A DNA stretch of 64,000 nt from a virus. The stretch spans positions 1-64,000 of IMG/VR virus record IMGVR_UViG_3300031707_000005. The stretch is one strand, 5' to 3'. This document shows, one piece after another, positions 36,925-63,733 of the stretch. The position numbers and the translations under genes are program-made. The notes below the pieces were generated by a model. That model searched no databases. It saw only the letters and a program-made list of their open reading frames with translations, and was not told the DNA's origin. Numbering within the stretch: position 1 is the stretch's first letter; each line of letters begins with the position of its first letter.

Positions 36925-37033
36925 AAATAAACCTCTCGATTAAACCCCGATGAAGGGCTTATGAGTTTCTTTGTCCTACGTCTAACGGCAGTATATAGTC
37001 CAGTATAAAACACTGGAACTGTCGTATAAAGGA

Positions 37034-49943: not shown

Positions 49944-52196
49944 CTATATACTTTCTTGCTGAATTGGTTCCGGTTCGAGTTTTTCAGACAAGCTATCTTG
50001 AATCAAATTTCTGAGATTCGAATTTCGAATTGTTTCGCGTTCATTGTGGATGGCAAGAGAAAAAGCTCTTGGGTCTCCAAACATGAAGACCTTCTTTTTA
50101 GCACGAGTAATCGCAGTATAAACTAAATTTCTATATAACATTATGCCATACTGCATGGTCATTGGCATCAAGACGAAATCAAATTCTTGTCCTTGAACTT
50201 TATGCGCTGTGCAAGCATATGCAACTTTTAGAACATGCCTAGCTTCTTCAATCTTGAACAAGAAAACCTTATCTATGTATCTCGGAACAGATGAATCCTG
50301 ATCAAACCAGTCAAATATTTTTACTTCAACTTCATCCTGTTTAATTGAAACACGGGTTACTTTCCCAACGTCACCATTGAAGATCATTCGTTCATAGTCA
50401 TTCTTGACTATCATGACACGATCACCTTCAAACAAATCAACATTACCATGTTTAAGTTTTGTAGCTTTCCCAGAAATAAAATCAGGGTTCAAAACTCCAC
50501 GAAGTCGTTTATTCAAAGTATCAACACCAAGTTCACCGTTATACATCGGTGCAATAACCTGGAAATTCATATCTCTTGATTTCAACGCAGTAGACATTTT
50601 ACATATTTCGTCTGCAACATCTTCAATTGGAATGTTCATGTAAACAAATTGAGACGATGTATTAGTTCGAGTATCTACCGCATTTCCTTTCAAAATGGCA
50701 TGAGCAACAGTAATAATATCTGATTGCTTCTCTTGACGATAAACACGAGTAAGAGACACGTGAGGAACGTCACGACACTGCATTAAACTATTCAAAACAT
50801 AGCCAGCTCCGACAGATGGGAGCTGTGCTGAGTCACCAACCATTATTACGATAGTTGTCGGCAATAACGCGGAAATTAGGTTAAATAGAGTTGAACTATC
50901 AACCATTGACATCTCATCAACGATAACAGCATCAACATGGAAATGATTTCCGGAATAAAACTCCCAACCACCATCTTTTTTGTAACCGAGTGCTCTATGG
51001 ATCGTATAAGCAGGTTTTCCGGTAACTTGAGATAAACGCTTAGCAGCAATACCGGTAGGAGACATCAAAGTATAATGAAGACCGGCTTTTTCAAAAAGAT
51101 TAACGAAAGCTGACACGAGAGTAGTTTTGCCGGTACCTGGATATCCAGATATAACACAAAACCTTGAGCGCTCAAGCATAAGAAAAGCATCTCGTTGATC
51201 ATCAGATAATGAAATTCCGCGGGATTCTTCAAAGTCATTCAAGATCAACTTTAGATCACCCATAACACGCGGAGGCTGACGAACGATTTCCGATATATAC
51301 TTAGCAGACTCAGATTCATATTTCCAATTATGAGCTAGGTAGATGAAATCACCAGAACAAAAAATGTCACCAGAACTCTGGAGTGACTTCAAACCCGAGA
51401 AAAAATGCGAGTCAGACATATACTCGCCATGAGAAAAAGCAGACACGGAGTGCCTTCGAAACATTTTCTTTGACATATACTCGAGAATTTGTCCAGAAGT
51501 GCAATAAACGTGTCCATCTGATGCAGCAAGTTCACGCATGACGAACGTAATCATTGCACAAATACGTCTCGAATCATCTACACCGATACCGGTTTTCTGA
51601 GCCGCACTGTCCGCAGTGGCAAACCCGACACTTGGACATTCACAAAGTCTATATGGATCTTCACGAACAATATTTTTAGTTTGAATACCAAATTTCGTAA
51701 AAACATTTCTTACCTGAGCTGCATTTAACCCAAGATCCGTTAAAAAGATCGCGACAGTTCGACTTTCTGAGGCTTCAGTCCATTCCCTAACTATAGCATC
51801 GGCCTGAGTCTTTGTAAGAAATGGCAAACTACGAACTTGTTCCGGATCAGTATTTAAAGTATTAACTAATTCATCACCGAGGGCATCATATAATCTAGTG
51901 GCAGTAATCATTCCAATAGAAGGAACGTTAGCCATTAAATATATTATGATGCCGTTTCGTCCTTTTTCAGGAAGGACTTCACAGTCGGTGGCATTGAATT
52001 GCTTGCCGAATTTTTCATGAACTTCGTAACCACCGGTAAACTTAGCTTTCAGACCAGTTGCGATAGACACTCCAGGAAATGTTCCACGAATCGTAACTTG
52101 CTGTGAATTGTTATCAAGCGTGGCCTTAACAATGTAAAAACCGGTTTGACGATTCTGAAATTGAATACCAGATACTTTTGCGGTAATTTGCTCCAT
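49944..52196 (-). CDS. recD2: RecD2-like SF1B helicase
   Basis: N-terminal OB and HhH domains (HEKFGKQF, EDPYRL); GYPGTGKTT, IVDEMSMVD, VGDSAQLPSVGAG, YACTAHKVQGQE, LVYTAITRAK. Confidence 0.92.
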   Translation of the reverse strand: MEQITAKVSGIQFQNRQTGFYIVKATLDNNSQQVTIRGTFPGVSIATGLKAKFTGGYEVHEKFGKQFNATDCEVLPEKGRNGIIIYLMANVPSIGMITATRLYDALGDELVNTLNTDPEQVRSLPFLTKTQADAIVREWTEASESRTVAIFLTDLGLNAAQVRNVFTKFGIQTKNIVREDPYRLCECPSVGFATADSAAQKTGIGVDDSRRICAMITFVMRELAASDGHVYCTSGQILEYMSKKMFRRHSVSAFSHGEYMSDSHFFSGLKSLQSSGDIFCSGDFIYLAHNWKYESESAKYISEIVRQPPRVMGDLKLILNDFEESRGISLSDDQRDAFLMLERSRFCVISGYPGTGKTTLVSAFVNLFEKAGLHYTLMSPTGIAAKRLSQVTGKPAYTIHRALGYKKDGGWEFYSGNHFHVDAVIVDEMSMVDSSTLFNLISALLPTTIVIMVGDSAQLPSVGAGYVLNSLMQCRDVPHVSLTRVYRQEKQSDIITVAHAILKGNAVDTRTNTSSQFVYMNIPIEDVADEICKMSTALKSRDMNFQVIAPMYNGELGVDTLNKRLRGVLNPDFISGKATKLKHGNVDLFEGDRVMIVKNDYERMIFNGDVGKVTRVSIKQDEVEVKIFDWFDQDSSVPRYIDKVFLFKIEEARHVLKVAYACTAHKVQGQEFDFVLMPMTMQYGIMLYRNLVYTAITRAKKKVFMFGDPRAFSLAIHNERETIRNSNLRNLIQDSLSEKLEPEPIQQESI

Positions 52197-52209
52197 GAGC
52201 ACCTCGAAA

Positions 52210-53013
52210 TCAAGAAGCGTTGGAACCCATCATCTTATACAGGTCAGACTCAGAGATTACCTGAACACCATGTTTCTTAGCGCTCTTCATCTTGGAACTA
52301 GTGGTATCAGAGTCATTAGTAACAAGGTATGACAAACCGGAACCAACAGAACTTTTCGAAACCCCTCCAGCGTCCATAATCATTTTTTCAACAGCTTTTC
52401 TAGGTTTTGAAGTAGATCCGGTTATACAAAAAGATTTTCCAGAAAGAAGACCACCAACCGGTTTTTTAAGATCAAGAACCTCTGACAAGTCGAGTATAGC
52501 ACGGTGATGTTCTTGGAGACCGTCAAAAACTTGCCTCGCGGTCACTTCTCCAATATTCGGAATTTTCAAAAGTTCTTCGTGAGTAACCGCTAAAACCTTG
52601 TCAACAGTATCATACCCGGCTTGAACGATATCCGTAGCCGTAGCAAGAGCAAAATTTGGAATGTTAAGTGACGCTAGGAGCAACTCAAGAGGAATTTTCT
52701 TACCTGCATGAAGAACTTCATAACATTTCTGCGCCATTTTCTGGCCGGATGTACACATAACTAAGTCATCGATAGTTAATTTATATAGATCGGCAATGGA
52801 TTGTATGCGAGGATTATTTGGATCAGTGAGCTCGTCTATGAGGGCATCACCCCAATGAAGTAGACCAAGTCTCATAATCCATACTTTTATAGACCCGGCA
52901 AGCTTCGCAGAGCAAGACCGATTTCGACACCAAAGGAAGAAACCCTCGGTGGAAGTTGGTCCATTACATATAGGACAAAAGTCCGGAATTTTAAAGCGAT
53001 CCTGGTCTCCCAT
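52210..53013 (-). CDS. ligA: NAD-dependent DNA ligase, C-terminal part (zinc finger, HhH, BRCT)
   Basis: IPDFCPIC..WCRNRSC; SIADLYKL; IPNIGEVTA; LSGKSFCITG..GG..SSV..YLVT..SSKMKSAKKHGVQVISE. Confidence 0.88.
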   Translation of the reverse strand: MGDQDRFKIPDFCPICNGPTSTEGFFLWCRNRSCSAKLAGSIKVWIMRLGLLHWGDALIDELTDPNNPRIQSIADLYKLTIDDLVMCTSGQKMAQKCYEVLHAGKKIPLELLLASLNIPNFALATATDIVQAGYDTVDKVLAVTHEELLKIPNIGEVTARQVFDGLQEHHRAILDLSEVLDLKKPVGGLLSGKSFCITGSTSKPRKAVEKMIMDAGGVSKSSVGSGLSYLVTNDSDTTSSKMKSAKKHGVQVISESDLYKMMGSNAS

Positions 53014-53042
53014 AAGGAAGAGTACAGGACAGAAAGTCAGCT

Positions 53043-53627
53043 TTACTCAGCAGCTTGTTCCTGAGTCTCTTCAGGAGCTTCATAATCTTCTTCAGATTCC
53101 TCCTCTTCCTCTTCTTGCCCCTCTTCCTCAGCTCCGGAAGGCTCCTGGCTCATATCAGGTGTTTCAGTATCGTAGGAAGGAGGGGTCTCACCAGCGGGAG
53201 TTCCACCGGCACCGGCTTCAACATCATCCAGTGATTGGTTCTTCGGGATAGGCGCCCCTCCCTCATCACCATAGGTATATTCAGACTGAAGCATCTCATA
53301 TTTACCTTCATAAAAGGCCTTCGAGAAGGTCGAGAGTTCGTCTCCAATAGCAAGAACAGCTTCCGAAATCTTTGAGAGCCGGGCGAGTTCCTCCCCAGCA
53401 AAGTCTCCCTGAAGTCGGGCGAGTTTAGCATATAAAACGTGAGTGTCTTTTAAGACGTCAGCAACGTAAGAATTAACGCGTTGCCACTCACCGTCACGAT
53501 CTTCGGTAGCAACACGATTAAAAATACTTTGTCGTACTTCAGAAGCTATACGGGAAAATTCAGTCCGAGGCTCATCAGACGTGGCTTTTTGAACTTCGGA
53601 TGCAGCGTTGCGAAATATAGTGGTCAT
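53043..53627 (-). CDS. Putative internal head protein with acidic tail
   Basis: RNAASEV / RIASEV / NRVA motifs, E-rich C-terminus. Confidence 0.6.
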   Translation of the reverse strand: MTTIFRNAASEVQKATSDEPRTEFSRIASEVRQSIFNRVATEDRDGEWQRVNSYVADVLKDTHVLYAKLARLQGDFAGEELARLSKISEAVLAIGDELSTFSKAFYEGKYEMLQSEYTYGDEGGAPIPKNQSLDDVEAGAGGTPAGETPPSYDTETPDMSQEPSGAEEEGQEEEEEESEEDYEAPEETQEQAAE

Positions 53628-53722
53628 AGTTTTCCCTTTACAGCAGAAGGTAACAAAGGGTCTAGAAAATTAGAAAGGATACTATACTATTAAGTAAAGA
53701 ACTCTCGAGCGTAGTTTTTTAG

Positions 53723-54841
53723 ATGTCACAAAATCGTATCAATGAACTAAGGTCAAGTCTCAAAAAATGGAGAGACGCATATTATAACTTGGATCCGAAA
53801 GTTTCAGACCAAGAATATGACTCAGCCAGGGATGAACTGGCAGGACTATCTCCAGATGATACGGAAATTATTGCAATAGGTGCGACACCATCTCAACACT
53901 CTGTATGGGAAAAAGTTCGACACGAAATACCGATGGGATCACTCGGAAAAGCAAATTCTGAGAAAGAAATTGATGACTGGATTGAAAAAACAGGCGCAAA
54001 AGAGTGGTTCATAACACACAAAATTGATGGATCATCCATGGAGCTCGTTTACAAGTCCGGAAAACTAATAAGATGCGTAACTCGAGGGGATGGAATTATC
54101 GGTGAAGATGTGACAGTAAATGTGTCAAAAATTCCATCAGTCCCGAAATCTTTACCGATGCCTATAGATACGATTGTACGCGGGGAAATAGTGATGTTGA
54201 AGAGTGTATTCACTCAGAAATACTCAGAAGAATATGCAAATCCACGAAACACAGCAGCCGGAAAAGTGCGTGAAAAGAAAGGTGGAGGAGAAGCGTGTAA
54301 AGACCTTGAGTTTCTCGCCTATTGGATTCATTTCGAAAAACAGGCAGATAAGCAAAATGGCATGTTTGCATCCATACTTTGGCTCAAAGAGAATGGATTT
54401 AAAACTCCGACATGCACTGTAAGTCGAAATCTAGATACTATTAAATCGGTATATACTGATCAGTCGACAAAAAGAGACGATATAGATTATGAAATAGATG
54501 GAATGGTTGTTTCCGTCGAAGATTTAAATCTAATCGAAGAGTTAGGTTCAATTAATGGGCGACCAAGAGGTCAGATCGCGTGGAAATTTGATCCCGCCAT
54601 GCGAGAAACAAGAATAGTTGACGTAAAATGGCAAGTCGGTAACTCTGGAAGAATAACGCCTGTAGCAGTAGTAGAACCGGTTGATGTCGGAGGAGTTACA
54701 ATAACAAATATATCCCTACATAACCTATCACTATTTCGAGATCTCGCCTTAAATAAAGGAAATCGAGTCCTTGTGTCACGTAGAAACGACGTCATTCCGT
54801 TTTTAGAAAAGAACCTAGATATTGATATTGATCAAGAGTGA
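53723..54841 (+). CDS. ligA: NAD-dependent DNA ligase, N-terminal part (Ia, adenylation and OB domains)
   Basis: AYY..SDQEYD, KVRHEIPMGSL, motif I HKIDG, TRGDG.GEDVT, RGEI, NPRNTAAG, YEIDGMV, AWKF, GRITPVA, RRNDVIP. Confidence 0.92.
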   Translation: MSQNRINELRSSLKKWRDAYYNLDPKVSDQEYDSARDELAGLSPDDTEIIAIGATPSQHSVWEKVRHEIPMGSLGKANSEKEIDDWIEKTGAKEWFITHKIDGSSMELVYKSGKLIRCVTRGDGIIGEDVTVNVSKIPSVPKSLPMPIDTIVRGEIVMLKSVFTQKYSEEYANPRNTAAGKVREKKGGGEACKDLEFLAYWIHFEKQADKQNGMFASILWLKENGFKTPTCTVSRNLDTIKSVYTDQSTKRDDIDYEIDGMVVSVEDLNLIEELGSINGRPRGQIAWKFDPAMRETRIVDVKWQVGNSGRITPVAVVEPVDVGGVTITNISLHNLSLFRDLALNKGNRVLVSRRNDVIPFLEKNLDIDIDQE

Positions 54842-54850
54842 CATTACAAT

Positions 54851-55042
54851 ATGATTAAACAACACAGATGGTCAGGATGGCCCGGGGCTTTCTGCCTAGA
54901 TTGCTTCGCAGAAGACCAAGGCGAAGCATGCTTAGTTGACGAATGTTATGGCGCCATACAGTGCATTAAAGGACATATTCAATGTGAAGAACATGAATAT
55001 ATCGGTTGTGAAAAACACAAAAATTCACCATGCACTAAATAA
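54851..55042 (+). CDS. Small Cys/His-rich protein
   Basis: 63 aa; HRWSGWPGAFCLDC and further Cys residues. Confidence 0.5.
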   Translation: MIKQHRWSGWPGAFCLDCFAEDQGEACLVDECYGAIQCIKGHIQCEEHEYIGCEKHKNSPCTK

Positions 55043-55044
55043 AA

Positions 55045-55560
55045 TCAGACTTGAATTTCACCGATATACGGAAGGTTCCGATGTTTCTCCTGATAATCCA
55101 TACCATATCCAACAACAAACTTATCTTCAATAGTAAACCCGGTATAATCGATTTTCACTGGAACTCGAGTTCTACACGATTTATGTAAAAGAGCACAAAT
55201 CGAAATGGAAGCTGGTTCTCTAGTTTGAAGAATTTTAATTAAGTGTTGAATTGTAAGTCCAGAATCAACAATATCCTCAACAATAAGTATATCTTTTCCC
55301 TTAATAGACCGTGTTAAGTCATGAGTGATCATAATGGAACCGGAAGACGTTCCACCATTATACGAACTAATACCGAGAAAATCAACAAACGTATCCGGAA
55401 GCTTAATGGTCCGAATCAGATCACCAGCAAAAACAAAAGACCCCTTTAACACAGGAATCATCGTTAATGGACTCCTAGCGAAATCCTGAGTGATAGCCTG
55501 TCCGATCCACGAAATGCGATTAGCGATACTAGACGCTGATATCAATTCGCGAATCGGCAT
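55045..55560 (-). CDS. hpt: Hypoxanthine phosphoribosyltransferase
   Basis: VLKGSFVFAGDL, ISSY, ILIVEDIVDSGLT, FVVGYGMDY..RNLPYI. Confidence 0.93.
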   Translation of the reverse strand: MPIRELISASSIANRISWIGQAITQDFARSPLTMIPVLKGSFVFAGDLIRTIKLPDTFVDFLGISSYNGGTSSGSIMITHDLTRSIKGKDILIVEDIVDSGLTIQHLIKILQTREPASISICALLHKSCRTRVPVKIDYTGFTIEDKFVVGYGMDYQEKHRNLPYIGEIQV

Positions 55561-55825: not shown

Positions 55826-58800
55826 TCAACTACAACCTGTCGTAGTTCCACATGAGGAACAAAGATAACAAGAACCATTACGTTGAGTTATGTTACCACA
55901 ACGAGCACATGGAGGACCGCCAAGGTTCTTACGCGGCGTCTTTATCGTAGCATCAGTAGAATGTAACGGAGGCGGCGGTATTGAAGGCGGCGATGAATGG
56001 TATTGATCCGATACTTCATCCTTCGCAATGCTTTCATTAACGTCGTTGTCCGACTCATCAGAACGATTAGAAAGACCGGAGTGTTCCCCATTATAATAAT
56101 GAACATCAAGAACTTTGAACATATAATCATATAAACTCTTAGCAAACCGAACTTTCTTGTTCGTTGTCATCCCAGCGGGTTCAAATCGGGTATCGATGAA
56201 ACTTGAAATAAGTTTCGGTAAAGGAATCCCGTATTGAATGGCAATAGAACAGAGCTGGGTGAAACCATCTATCAGACCAGATACAGTGCTACCGGGTTTC
56301 CCGAGTTTAAGAAAGATTTCACCCGGACGACCGTCAGGATACTCACTAACAATAAGATATCCCTTATATCCGTCAATTTCAAACTTATGCCGCCAACTCT
56401 TAACATCATTCGGCATTTTCTCACGACGAACAACAGGAACTTGAATTTCACGAACAACTTCTCTGATGTTCATGTCAACGGCTTTTAAGGCCGCTTGCAG
56501 TGAATCCTTGGAGTCCTTCGTCGTGAGAGGCTGAGACGCCTTACACTTATCACGATATAGAGCTATACACTTCAAACCGAGACGCCACGATTCTTCATAA
56601 ATCTTAGCAATCTCGTCAGAGGTAACGCTCTCAGGAAGATTAACAGTCTTGCTCATCGCACATGTAATAAGTGGCTGGATGGCAGCCATCATTTTGACAT
56701 GCGCCATAGGCGATAGATACCGCGCCGATGGACCGGCAGGCATCGCAGTGTCGAAAACATGAATATGCTCGTCCTTTAGACCGGGAGCTCCTTCTATCGT
56801 GTCATTAGATTCGACATGATTGCAAATCTCTGCAACTTCATCTGTCGAATATCCGAGATTCACCAGGGCCTCGCGAACACCGAAGTTGATGAGCTTCATT
56901 ACGCCGCCACCGACGAGCGACTTATAACTCACAAGTGAAAACGCCGGTTCGATACCAGTAGTGTTCATTCCCATCAGGAACGATATAGTTCCGAGTGGGG
57001 CCTGCAGTGTGGCTTGAGAGATATTATAGCCGTACTTTTCACCAAGAGAGATGGCTTCTTTCCAGACTTCAGCGGACAATGAAACCACGTCATCATTGAC
57101 CGGATCCTTCGGAAGGTGCCAACGCTCGATGATTTTTGCATCAGCTTCCTGATGCATTCGCATCACGCGAAGCATATCTTCACGGTTCTTCTCGAATTCA
57201 GAGAATGCGCCGACACGAGCAGCAAGCTTTGCTGATGTTAGATAAACAATTCCGGTCATGAGAGATGCCATGCGAGCGGCAACAGCACGACCCTCATCGG
57301 AATCATATCCATAACCGAGATTCATGACGAGCGCACCAAGATCACCATAGTTAGTGCCAATGGGACGAAGCTTTATTGAATTAGACCCGATTTCGTCAGT
57401 CGGATATGCAGCCTTCGCAACAATAGCCATCTGAGCGGTACTAAAGATTCTCGTGGCTTGAGTAAATCTCTCAGGAACAAATTTGCGGCCATCGAAAAAC
57501 TTCGTCAGGTTAATCGCACAGAGATTACAGGCTGTGTTGTCAACATGAAGGAATTCACTACAATTATGAGCAACAATCCCGTTTGCGATGAGCGAACTAG
57601 TTTCAGGCTCGGTAATGTCGTAAACGGGAACAATCTCACCATTGTTAATCACACGGACAACATCATCTGTCCATTTATCGCGGCCGTTATGATTAATTGA
57701 ATCAGGAATATCGGAGAATCGAGCTTGTTTCCTATCAGAAAGCAATCCGATTGATTTCATAAGATTTCTGAAAGTTTTAAGACTCTGGCCAGTGATAACA
57801 AGATCATTTGTCTTCTCTTTCGAGAAATACGTTCGAGTTTCGCCCGACACTGTCGTATATGAAAACGTCGGTTTATCGTTAGGACGACGATCTTTGTAAA
57901 GAGTGCTGTTAACACCAAGATTCAAAAGAAGATCCTGGACTCCGCGTAGAAGTTCAAGACTAGTAGAACTAAAACGAGCGTCAACATTCTTCTTCGGTTG
58001 AATATTGAAAGTCCCATCTGCAGAAAAAAGACCAGCAAGAAATGCAAGTTGTTCCTGAACTGTTGATCGAAAAACGGCATCCATGACTTTTTTAGTCGGA
58101 GCTTTAGACCCAGGTTCACAAGCCCAGACCAACATGGATTCCCAAATGGCTTTCCTGTGAATCCGAATATAATCCGGGCTTTCACCGACAGATCCATTTT
58201 GATATTTTTGAGAGAATGGGATGTCTTGATCACGGAAAAATGCAAGAATCTTATCCATTGCATCTTTGTCATCTTTACCAAAAACGAGCCCAACTTCGTG
58301 AGTATTTCTACAAGGAAGTGCTTTCAAGATCCATCCATCACCAACAATCCACCCAGCAATCTTGTGCCACATGAGATCAAGACCAGATGACTCCGTCGAG
58401 TATGCACCAACTCCGGCTTGCAAACAAAGAACACTATCTTCCGTCAGATCGGATGCCTCTACCCACCCATCAGTCGTCATAAGACGATGATCAGGGGTTA
58501 CCTTCAGTATTCTACCTCTTCTCGTATGAACTTCAACAACATTTTTCACACCAGTCGGAAAAACTGTGGCTGCTTTCAAAACAGGTCCATCTGGTGTTTG
58601 AACGAGAGTCAAAAATTTCGAAGAACAACCTGATGACTCGAATTCTGCACACAAATCTTCAATACGTACTAAGCCAAGCTCAGTGGCAATGCGAGTATCG
58701 GGATGGAAGCATGGATTTGAAGCACGAATCTTCCCATTCTTTGGGGTAGTGTGCCACTTGTTTATATTGTCGGAGAATTGAACGCCCGGGTCACCACAAC

Positions 58801-59842
58801 GCCACGCAGCATCGGCAACTTCTTTCCAAATTTCACGAGCTTTGTAGTTATGAACTACTTTTCCACTCTTACGCTCACGAGTTTGCCATGAACCGTCATC
58901 GAGCATGGTTTGCATAAACGCGTCAGGAACAGATACAGAGTGATTTGCGTTCTGATATGGAACTATTTTGTATGCACCATTCGGGTCGTCATACTCTGCA
59001 GAATAACCAATAGAAACAAGATCATGAGCAAGCTTCTCCGACCACGACTTGCAACGAATGAAACCGGGACGACCATCACGTGTTTCAAGAATGTCAGGAT
59101 GATCCATATCCATAACAACCATCTTCGCTGCGTTTCTCGTAGCACCACCCGATTTCATCGCACCAGCGTATGAATTATTCCCCTGCATCCAAGACATCGG
59201 ACCAGAAGTATACGAACCAGCAGAAATCTTTTCATAAGAAGAACGGAGATTTGATAAATTAGCACCGGAGCCGGATCCACCACGGAAAATGGTAAGCTCT
59301 GACGTCTGAAAACGCATAATGTCATCAAGAGAATCTTCAACACCAGAAATGAAACAAGCCGAAGCTGCTTGTTTACGACCTTCAACACCAAGGTTAAACC
59401 AAACCGGAGAATTAAATGCTCCGTATTGATGCAAAAGAGCATGAATAAGCTCTTCTTCAAATACTTGAGCATCAATTTCAGTATTGAAAAAGTTCTGTTC
59501 TTCCGCCCAATTTCGAATGGCACAACAAACACGAGTAAACATTTGCTTTACTGATGTTTCACGAACACCATTAACAACACGAAGATATTTATCTGCTACA
59601 ACATTTACGTTATTTTGAGTCCACCAAGCAGGAACCTCAATATTCTTTTGTTCGAAAACAATCTCACCTTTACCATTACGAATACAGGCATCAGCAGTCT
59701 TCCATTCAACTTGGTCAAACGGATGAGATCCTTCTGAGGTAAATACACGAGGCCAATGACCCGCATCGCGTGATATCAAGTCCTTAGTGGAGTGAGCCCT
59801 AAGGTTTACTACTGGTGCGGATATAGCCTCAGTGTTTGACAT
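55826..59842 (-). CDS. nrdJ: Class II (B12-dependent) ribonucleotide reductase with intein, C-terminal TSCPD-like domain and zinc ribbon
   Basis: FNSPVWFN, SACFI, SGGATRNAAKM, GDPGVQF, SNP|C..CSE, ACNL, APLGTISFLM..TGIEP, SKTVN, YRD; terminal CARCG..CYLCSSCGTTTGCS. Confidence 0.92.
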   Translation of the reverse strand: MSNTEAISAPVVNLRAHSTKDLISRDAGHWPRVFTSEGSHPFDQVEWKTADACIRNGKGEIVFEQKNIEVPAWWTQNNVNVVADKYLRVVNGVRETSVKQMFTRVCCAIRNWAEEQNFFNTEIDAQVFEEELIHALLHQYGAFNSPVWFNLGVEGRKQAASACFISGVEDSLDDIMRFQTSELTIFRGGSGSGANLSNLRSSYEKISAGSYTSGPMSWMQGNNSYAGAMKSGGATRNAAKMVVMDMDHPDILETRDGRPGFIRCKSWSEKLAHDLVSIGYSAEYDDPNGAYKIVPYQNANHSVSVPDAFMQTMLDDGSWQTRERKSGKVVHNYKAREIWKEVADAAWRCGDPGVQFSDNINKWHTTPKNGKIRASNPCFHPDTRIATELGLVRIEDLCAEFESSGCSSKFLTLVQTPDGPVLKAATVFPTGVKNVVEVHTRRGRILKVTPDHRLMTTDGWVEASDLTEDSVLCLQAGVGAYSTESSGLDLMWHKIAGWIVGDGWILKALPCRNTHEVGLVFGKDDKDAMDKILAFFRDQDIPFSQKYQNGSVGESPDYIRIHRKAIWESMLVWACEPGSKAPTKKVMDAVFRSTVQEQLAFLAGLFSADGTFNIQPKKNVDARFSSTSLELLRGVQDLLLNLGVNSTLYKDRRPNDKPTFSYTTVSGETRTYFSKEKTNDLVITGQSLKTFRNLMKSIGLLSDRKQARFSDIPDSINHNGRDKWTDDVVRVINNGEIVPVYDITEPETSSLIANGIVAHNCSEFLHVDNTACNLCAINLTKFFDGRKFVPERFTQATRIFSTAQMAIVAKAAYPTDEIGSNSIKLRPIGTNYGDLGALVMNLGYGYDSDEGRAVAARMASLMTGIVYLTSAKLAARVGAFSEFEKNREDMLRVMRMHQEADAKIIERWHLPKDPVNDDVVSLSAEVWKEAISLGEKYGYNISQATLQAPLGTISFLMGMNTTGIEPAFSLVSYKSLVGGGVMKLINFGVREALVNLGYSTDEVAEICNHVESNDTIEGAPGLKDEHIHVFDTAMPAGPSARYLSPMAHVKMMAAIQPLITCAMSKTVNLPESVTSDEIAKIYEESWRLGLKCIALYRDKCKASQPLTTKDSKDSLQAALKAVDMNIREVVREIQVPVVRREKMPNDVKSWRHKFEIDGYKGYLIVSEYPDGRPGEIFLKLGKPGSTVSGLIDGFTQLCSIAIQYGIPLPKLISSFIDTRFEPAGMTTNKKVRFAKSLYDYMFKVLDVHYYNGEHSGLSNRSDESDNDVNESIAKDEVSDQYHSSPPSIPPPPLHSTDATIKTPRKNLGGPPCARCGNITQRNGSCYLCSSCGTTTGCS
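57563..58711 (-). mobile_element. Intein (383 aa) with LAGLIDADG endonuclease at the RNR active site
   Basis: Starts CFHPDTRIAT; block B VTPDHRL; IAGWIVGDG and FLAGLFSADG; ends VYDITEPETSSLIANGIVAHN|C. Confidence 0.93.
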
Positions 59843-63711: not shown

Positions 63712-63733
63712 GAATAGGGCACAAAGGGCTTAT

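Follow-up and report, generated by a model that had tools for sequence, protein, structure and literature searches.

LigN and LigC, divergently transcribed genes for the probable two subunits of an NAD+-dependent DNA ligase in a clade of large sediment phages

A 64,000-nucleotide stretch of viral DNA (here called the window: positions 1 to 64,000 of IMG/VR record IMGVR_UViG_3300031707_000005, on a contig of 84.6 kb that is estimated to represent 20% of a genome) encodes NAD+-dependent DNA ligase (LigA) as two genes that point away from each other. One, LigN, carries the adenylation half of the enzyme, the other, LigC, carries the DNA-binding half, and a gene for 194 amino acids (aa), p194, lies between them. 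We consider it likely, from sequence and by analogy, that LigN and LigC are the subunits of a single heterodimeric NAD+-dependent DNA ligase. In the mechanism that we propose, LigN would bind NAD+ through its domain Ia, become adenylylated at Lys100 and carry out the nick-sealing chemistry, and LigC, as the DNA-binding half with its Zn finger, HhH domain and BRCT domain, would complete the clamp that encircles nicked DNA. Assembly of the two chains would be non-covalent and would probably take place on the DNA itself, on the model of the heterodimeric T5-like phage ligase. The gene would have been cut in the linker between OB fold and Zn finger (the OB–Zn linker) in the ancestor of a clade of sediment phages of ~360–440 kb, and its N-terminal half is now inverted and transcribed away from p194, LigC and the RecD2-type helicase gene that follows them. 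We favor this two-subunit reading because the domain content of the halves is complementary, their ligase residues are invariant, the halves are kept together, a fused form is nested within the clade, and a heterodimeric phage ligase is already represented in the PDB (entry 9hu3). The two genes are as follows.

53723..54841, plus strand: LigN, 372 aa; domain Ia, nucleotidyltransferase (adenylation) domain and OB fold of NAD+-dependent DNA ligase
52210..53013, minus strand: LigC, 267 aa; Zn finger, HhH domain and BRCT domain of NAD+-dependent DNA ligase

What part of a ligase does each gene hold? LigN is matched by the Pfam models PF01653 (LigA adenylation domain, 4.7e-54) and PF03120 (LigA OB domain, 1.1e-20), and LigC by BRCT (1.6e-12) and by HhH families (HHH_5, HHH_2). 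On the full-length PHROG ligase profile phrog_3869, which has 656 positions, LigN occupies 6–380 and LigC 385–654, and because these spans are complementary, LigN and LigC together tile one ligase with neither loss nor duplication. Alignment to ligases of known structure agrees: LigN covers residues ~6–388 of the Thermus filiformis and Escherichia coli enzymes, the alignment starting at its residue 3–4, within domain Ia, and LigC covers residues 399–658 of 1dgs and 403–671 of 2owo, running through the BRCT domain. LigN ends 13 residues past ..RRNDVIP, the motif that closes the OB domain, and LigC begins 12 residues ahead of the first CPxC of its Zn finger, which places the break in the OB–Zn linker. 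A preliminary description of this locus, made from the letters of the window and their open reading frames, had reported the coordinates and domain content of both halves, a break in an inter-domain linker that spared every domain, and intact frames pointing apart around a 194-aa gene, all of which the frame list, Pfam and PHROG bear out. It had also seen no intein ends, and the Pfam scan finds no Hint (intein) domain in LigN or LigC, the extra tails being merely 12–13 aa long. A trans-spliced protein made through a split intein was considered as well and is ruled out, neither half having a Hint domain.

The residues expected of a working ligase are retained across both chains. In an alignment with six relatives (52–80% identity), the nucleotidyltransferase residues of LigN are invariant, namely K100 of the KxDG motif (K100-I-D-G), R153-G-E155, E257-I-D259-G260 and K288, so that motifs I (with the KxDG lysine), III, IV and V are all present. 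In domain Ia, the residues that bind the nicotinamide mononucleotide (NMN) moiety, Y20, Y21, D29 and D33, are likewise invariant, and position 32 is tyrosine or phenylalanine; judged by the corresponding E. coli LigA residues (Y22, H23, D32, Y35 and D36), LigN has the NMN-binding set. The Zn ligands of LigC (C13, C16, C29 and C34) are also invariant, and the remaining domains of a LigA, i.e. the OB fold followed by the four-Cys Zn finger, the HhH domain and the BRCT domain, are all found across LigN and LigC. An AlphaFold2 (AF2) model of LigC, with a predicted local distance difference test (pLDDT) score of 87, has the Zn ribbon, HhH repeats and BRCT domain as expected, and its Foldseek matches include 2owo (E. 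coli LigA on nicked DNA) and 9hu3_B. Nonsynonymous divergence (dN) in both halves is 0.12–0.46, to be compared with 0.14–0.36 in the adjacent RecD2 gene; synonymous divergence (dS) is saturated, so dN alone was compared and a dN/dS ratio was not obtainable. By this measure, there is no sign of relaxed selection in either half, and both are constrained in a clade that has diverged to about 45–50% identity. Thus, of the dN/dS check proposed in the preliminary description, the substance could be answered, dN being at the RecD2 level, and the ratio itself could not.

The layout of the locus is not peculiar to the window. Two scans of IMG/VR, sorted with a classification script, gave 19 loci with a LigN identity to the window of at least 45%. 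In every one of the 19, RecD2, LigC and p194 lie on one strand, transcribed in the order p194, LigC, RecD2, and LigN is transcribed away from them; all open reading frames of the split loci are intact. LigA is accordingly not a single polypeptide in these phages: it is represented by two open reading frames on opposite strands, kept in 19 loci. Five of the 19 are complete genomes of 362–436 kb with direct terminal repeats, and each of these has exactly one of each ligase half and exactly one LigA adenylation domain, in an open frame of 367–410 aa. There is, in other words, a clade of uncultured sediment phages of ~360–440 kb in which LigA is encoded by two conserved divergent genes. The genes and regions around the two halves in the window are as follows.

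53043..53627, minus strand: p194, a 194-aa open reading frame between the halves, on the strand of LigC and 29 nt upstream of it
53628..53722, no strand: divergent intergenic spacer of 95 bp from p194 to LigN
49944..52202, minus strand: RecD2-type helicase with Pfam domains AAA_30, HHH_RecD2, SH3_13 and OB_YrrC, directly downstream of LigC after a 7-nt gap
54851..55560, no strand: variable region 3′ of LigN, in the window a 63-aa Cys-rich open reading frame (plus strand) and a phosphoribosyltransferase gene (minus strand)

LigN looks locally inverted, because almost all other genes of the window are on the minus strand. The position 3′ of LigN has no homologues of the window genes in the relatives; in L008 and L013, LigN directly adjoins a gene called p84, and in other relatives (the equivalents in L002–L006 were compared) unrelated genes of 155–589 aa are found there.

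Could such an odd arrangement be an inversion produced by faulty assembly, or the remains of a ligase that a rearrangement disrupted and that is now on its way to being lost? Nothing speaks for this except the unusual layout itself, and the possibility is negligible, having in effect been refuted. The same layout recurs in 19 independent loci from different metagenomes, and in four further sediment runs, independent contigs span all of the junctions at ≥99% identity with no joints or loose ends: RecD2/LigC, LigC/p194, p194/LigN and the region downstream of LigN. Misassembly is thus excluded, and decay is contradicted by the intact open reading frames and by a dN in LigN and LigC as low as that of RecD2. 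The preliminary description had called for both of these comparisons, spanning sequence and the same split in related phages, and both came out in favor of a real locus. The window stretch itself is found in at least 16 sediment-metagenome runs (sampled-word share ≥0.25), with four more below 0.15, and a megablast of the locus against deposited phages gave no match.

A further line of evidence comes from a ligase that is not split. When 1.84 billion representative proteins were searched exhaustively with LigN and the best 150 matches were examined, the top match was P0001, a single 654-aa chain that is 58% identical to LigN and 57% identical to LigC; P0001 and two near-identical variants (P0151 among them) are carried by 8 Logan contigs, and P0001 was not found in the IMG/VR or JGI metagenome scans. 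In a maximum-likelihood tree of the concatenated halves (83 rows), P0001 groups with the split members L019, L021 and L023 at 100/100, and separate trees of the N and C halves agree. Forcing the 19 split rows into a clade without P0001 costs 42.5 log-likelihood units in an approximately unbiased test (p = 0.0001), the constraint having been set post hoc from the tree. The linker of P0001, ..VIPYVERNL-SAEGRPSGTSSS-LFPIPGFC.., has 25 residues, approximately the sum of tail and head in its split sisters and more than the linkers of the three nearest outgroups (18–22 residues). The most economical reading of these observations suggests that P0001 arose by secondary re-fusion; in terms of geometry, inverting the segment that holds p194 and LigN once would place the 3′ end of LigN beside the 5′ end of LigC on the same strand. 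If re-fusion holds, it is a strong argument that the ligase has one and the same function whether made from two genes or from one.

The same tree bears on how the split arose. All divergent-split loci fall into one clade (100/100) together with L027 and P0001, and this clade is nested among fused ligases of 618–705 aa, with the T5-like enzyme as a distant outgroup. Because fused genes separate the T5 type from the window clade, the split of the window clade is, on this tree, independent of the T5 split. In many outgroup loci, recD2 comes after a fused ligase gene in the same orientation, and in all divergent loci it comes after LigC, so that by this comparison the ancestral order is ligase then recD2, the linkage of the two genes is old, and it is the N-terminal half that was turned around in the window clade. 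At the base of the clade, L027 (7995–9849, plus strand) has a collinear split in which LigN ends in TAA, a single nucleotide follows, LigC starts with ATG in a different frame, and RecD2 comes next; L027 could represent a stage that preceded the inversion, or else a fission of its own. A search for scars of the inversion detected no inverted repeats flanking LigN beyond chance. Beyond the window clade, the 83-row tree needs five or more changes of state to account for collinear splits alone, the ligase halves of L088 are ~5.7 kb apart, and among the best 150 LigN matches, 34 are shorter than 450 aa, ~27 of which end 6–18 residues past (D/G/N)VIP. The OB–Zn linker of LigA thus appears to be a recurrent fission point, with at least five independent splits in this dataset.

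Two unrelated huge phages, each with a fused sister in the tree, have a ligase gene interrupted precisely at the OB–Zn linker by homologous genes for a TnsA-like PD-(D/E)xK endonuclease (L044, 9081–9773, plus strand; L074, 9094–9909, plus strand). These endonucleases match PF08722 at 7e-6 and 1e-7, respectively, and have an N-terminal CxxC ribbon. The gene behaves like a homing endonuclease targeting the OB–Zn site, and at least some of the fissions at this linker were, judging from these sequences, caused by mobile endonuclease genes.

The gene between the halves and the spacer next to it are features of the clade as well. In a hidden Markov model (HMM) search, p194 homologues are confined to divergent-split loci, always between LigC and LigN, with a nearly invariant core (..EWQRVNSYIADVLKD.HVLYAKLARLQGDF..). 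The AF2 model of p194 has a helical hairpin with pLDDT >94 for residues ~45–110, then a disordered Gly/Pro-rich stretch and a long acidic tail, and p194 has no informative match in Pfam, PHROGs, the ESM Atlas or, through AF2 and Foldseek, the PDB. We also considered whether p194 stood beside the ligase before the inversion; the idea is unsupported, since in the HMM search neither fused nor collinear ligases had a p194 homologue nearby. In the spacer, 29 nt upstream of the p194 ATG, lies the motif TAGACCCTTTGT, which is kept in the window and four relatives with the consensus TA[AG][GA]CCCTTTGT. The window has just three exact copies of its shorter form, TARRCCCTT, all of them in intergenic regions upstream of minus-strand genes.

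53653-53664, 36953-36961 and 63724-63732, minus strand: exact matches within the window to the motif TA[AG][GA]CCCTT(TGT)

The TA[AG][GA]CCCTT motif is a candidate phage-specific promoter element. Upstream of LigN, no conserved or sigma-70-like element was found, and across the window sigma-70-like promoters and terminators are at chance level. The preliminary description had pointed to TAnnnT placed 5 nt before both ATGs; the hexamer is indeed there, at 5 nt from each start, and as a promoter signal it does not stand out, the same element being found at 7 of 68 starts of open reading frames in the window (at −11), which, corrected for the offsets that were tried, does not reach significance. 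From gene order and the motif, p194, LigC and RecD2 probably form one transcription unit and LigN another.

Separate transcription units invite the question of whether the two halves still meet, and this is where the two-subunit reading has to be weighed against other accounts. After fission, the halves might have taken up separate jobs and ceased to form a ligase; for example, LigC could be a free HhH-BRCT sensor of nicks or ends, or a clamp adaptor, working with the co-transcribed RecD2, and LigN a stand-alone adenylyltransferase. The opposite orientation of the two transcription units, the close spacing of LigC to p194 (29 nt) and to RecD2 (7 nt) and the old linkage of ligase and RecD2 would all fit such a division of labor. 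We nonetheless think it improbable, since every ligase-specific residue is invariant, including the Zn ligands that position HhH against OB (PMC7470946), the halves always co-occur, with one of each per complete genome, and a fused form is nested in the clade. As to the biochemistry of LigA, the enzyme depends on its HhH domain for binding DNA, the Zn finger sets HhH against the OB fold, and the clamp closes through contacts between the nucleotidyltransferase and HhH domains (reviewed in PMC7470946), and NAD+-dependent ligases without HhH fail to seal nicks, according to the literature that this review cites. Some observations do weigh against a heterodimer. No dedicated dimerization module is visible at the new termini, the tails being of 12–13 aa; LigN and LigC are in different transcription units, which does not guarantee stoichiometric co-expression; no clear Shine–Dalgarno sequence is seen at the start of either gene; and LigN/LigC may not be the sole strand-joining enzyme, given weak matches to PF01068 (the nucleotidyltransferase domain of ATP-dependent ligases), of which each of the complete relatives G001–G005 has two, at 26–52 bits in frames of 222–467 aa.

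If LigN and LigC do form a heterodimer, why keep the genes apart? The split may be maintained as a means of gating ligase activity, with each half under a promoter of its own or made at its own time. In favor of such gating are the conserved element upstream of p194-LigC, with nothing comparable ahead of LigN, and an arrangement kept over deep divergence; it is at odds with the fused relative, which apparently does without it, and with collinear splits separated by 1 nt (L027), and we rate regulated assembly as slightly less probable even than separate jobs for the halves. A more speculative combination of these ideas, to which we assign a small chance, marginally above that of either, is that fission and fusion are reversible within one clade: a single inversion of p194 and LigN would interconvert the divergent form and the collinear or fused form, with the divergent form being kept as separate promoters gate the ligase in time, LigC being expressed with p194 and RecD2 from the conserved phage-specific promoter and LigN from another. 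The two-subunit ligase itself, which the preliminary description had proposed, is the best-supported reading, the halves being kept, intact and constrained, with one of each per complete genome, a nested fused form and the 9hu3 precedent; physical association and complementation in trans of LigN and LigC in the window clade are what we infer from sequence and analogy.

This ligase would evidently be able to work with its halves on opposite strands and transcribed as separate units. Because split and fused forms occur within one clade, nature supplies a matched pair with which to ask how far clamp closure benefits from having a single chain, and there are possible uses in enzyme engineering, such as split-ligase reporters and conditionally assembled ligases. 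Elsewhere in the window, the ribonucleotide reductase gene (55826–59842, minus strand, 1338 aa) contains a ~380-aa intein at roughly residues 379–760, which begins with CFHPDTRI after ..NP and ends with ..VAHN before CSEF; this intein is variably present in the clade, because the reductase genes of L002, L005 and L006 are uninterrupted (929–951 aa).

How does the window clade compare with ligases already known? A LigA in two chains, cut at the OB–Zn linker, is an established and structurally characterized form of the enzyme. T5-like phages encode their ligase as ligA/ligB (PMC3632103), PHROGs holds separate N-only (phrog_3359) and C-only (phrog_3498) ligase families, and the PDB entry 9hu3, as titled in Foldseek, is ‘PR1 phage heterodimeric DNA ligase in complex with 21-mer nicked DNA’ (released 2026-01-14); a literature search returned no paper on the PR1/9hu3 structure or on the biochemistry of any split LigA. 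Vibrio phage VCPH, which is T5-like, has three collinear frames, of 321 aa, 80 aa and 254 aa in that order, the last being a "subunit B" gene. Its ligase halves are separated at the OB–Zn linker just as LigN and LigC are, and the N half matches chain A of 9hu3 at 5.5e-83 and the C half chain B at 7e-47. Split LigA being already annotated (T5 ligA/ligB, PHROG 3359/3498), the window does not present a new kind of enzyme, and current understanding is not overturned, because a heterodimeric phage LigA has been both annotated and solved. What is new here, on the tree and the gene order, is an independent origin of the known split together with divergent transcription around a clade-specific gene.

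The T5 type (T5 ligA/ligB; PR1, PDB 9hu3/9i5i; PHROG 3359 and 3498) resembles the window clade in being cut between OB fold and Zn finger, with an N subunit of domain Ia, nucleotidyltransferase and OB and a C subunit of Zn finger, HhH and BRCT, in having minimal termini without an added dimerization domain, and in belonging to the phage replication module. It differs in its apparently independent origin, T5-like sequences forming a distant outgroup on a branch of ~2.4 substitutions per site whereas the nearest outgroups of the window are fused, and in its collinear genes with a small open reading frame between them; in the window clade the N half is inverted, transcription is divergent, and a conserved gene of 166–265 aa separates the halves. 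With the single-chain LigA of bacteria and jumbo phages (E. coli 2OWO, T. filiformis 1DGS; phrog_3869), the split pair shares all domains, motifs I/III/IV/V, the NMN-binding residues of domain Ia, the four Zn cysteines, HhH and BRCT, and LigN resembles canonical LigA (1e-48 to 1e-55) more than it does T5 subunit A (3.6e-25); the difference is that the one chain has become two polypeptides encoded on opposite strands. Finally, ligase genes split by free-standing homing endonuclease genes (L044 and L074) have the same break after ..DVIP(x)6-10 and intact halves, whereas in the window clade p194 lacks a nuclease signature and one of the halves has been turned around, so that an endonuclease origin of the split in the window clade is a conjecture.

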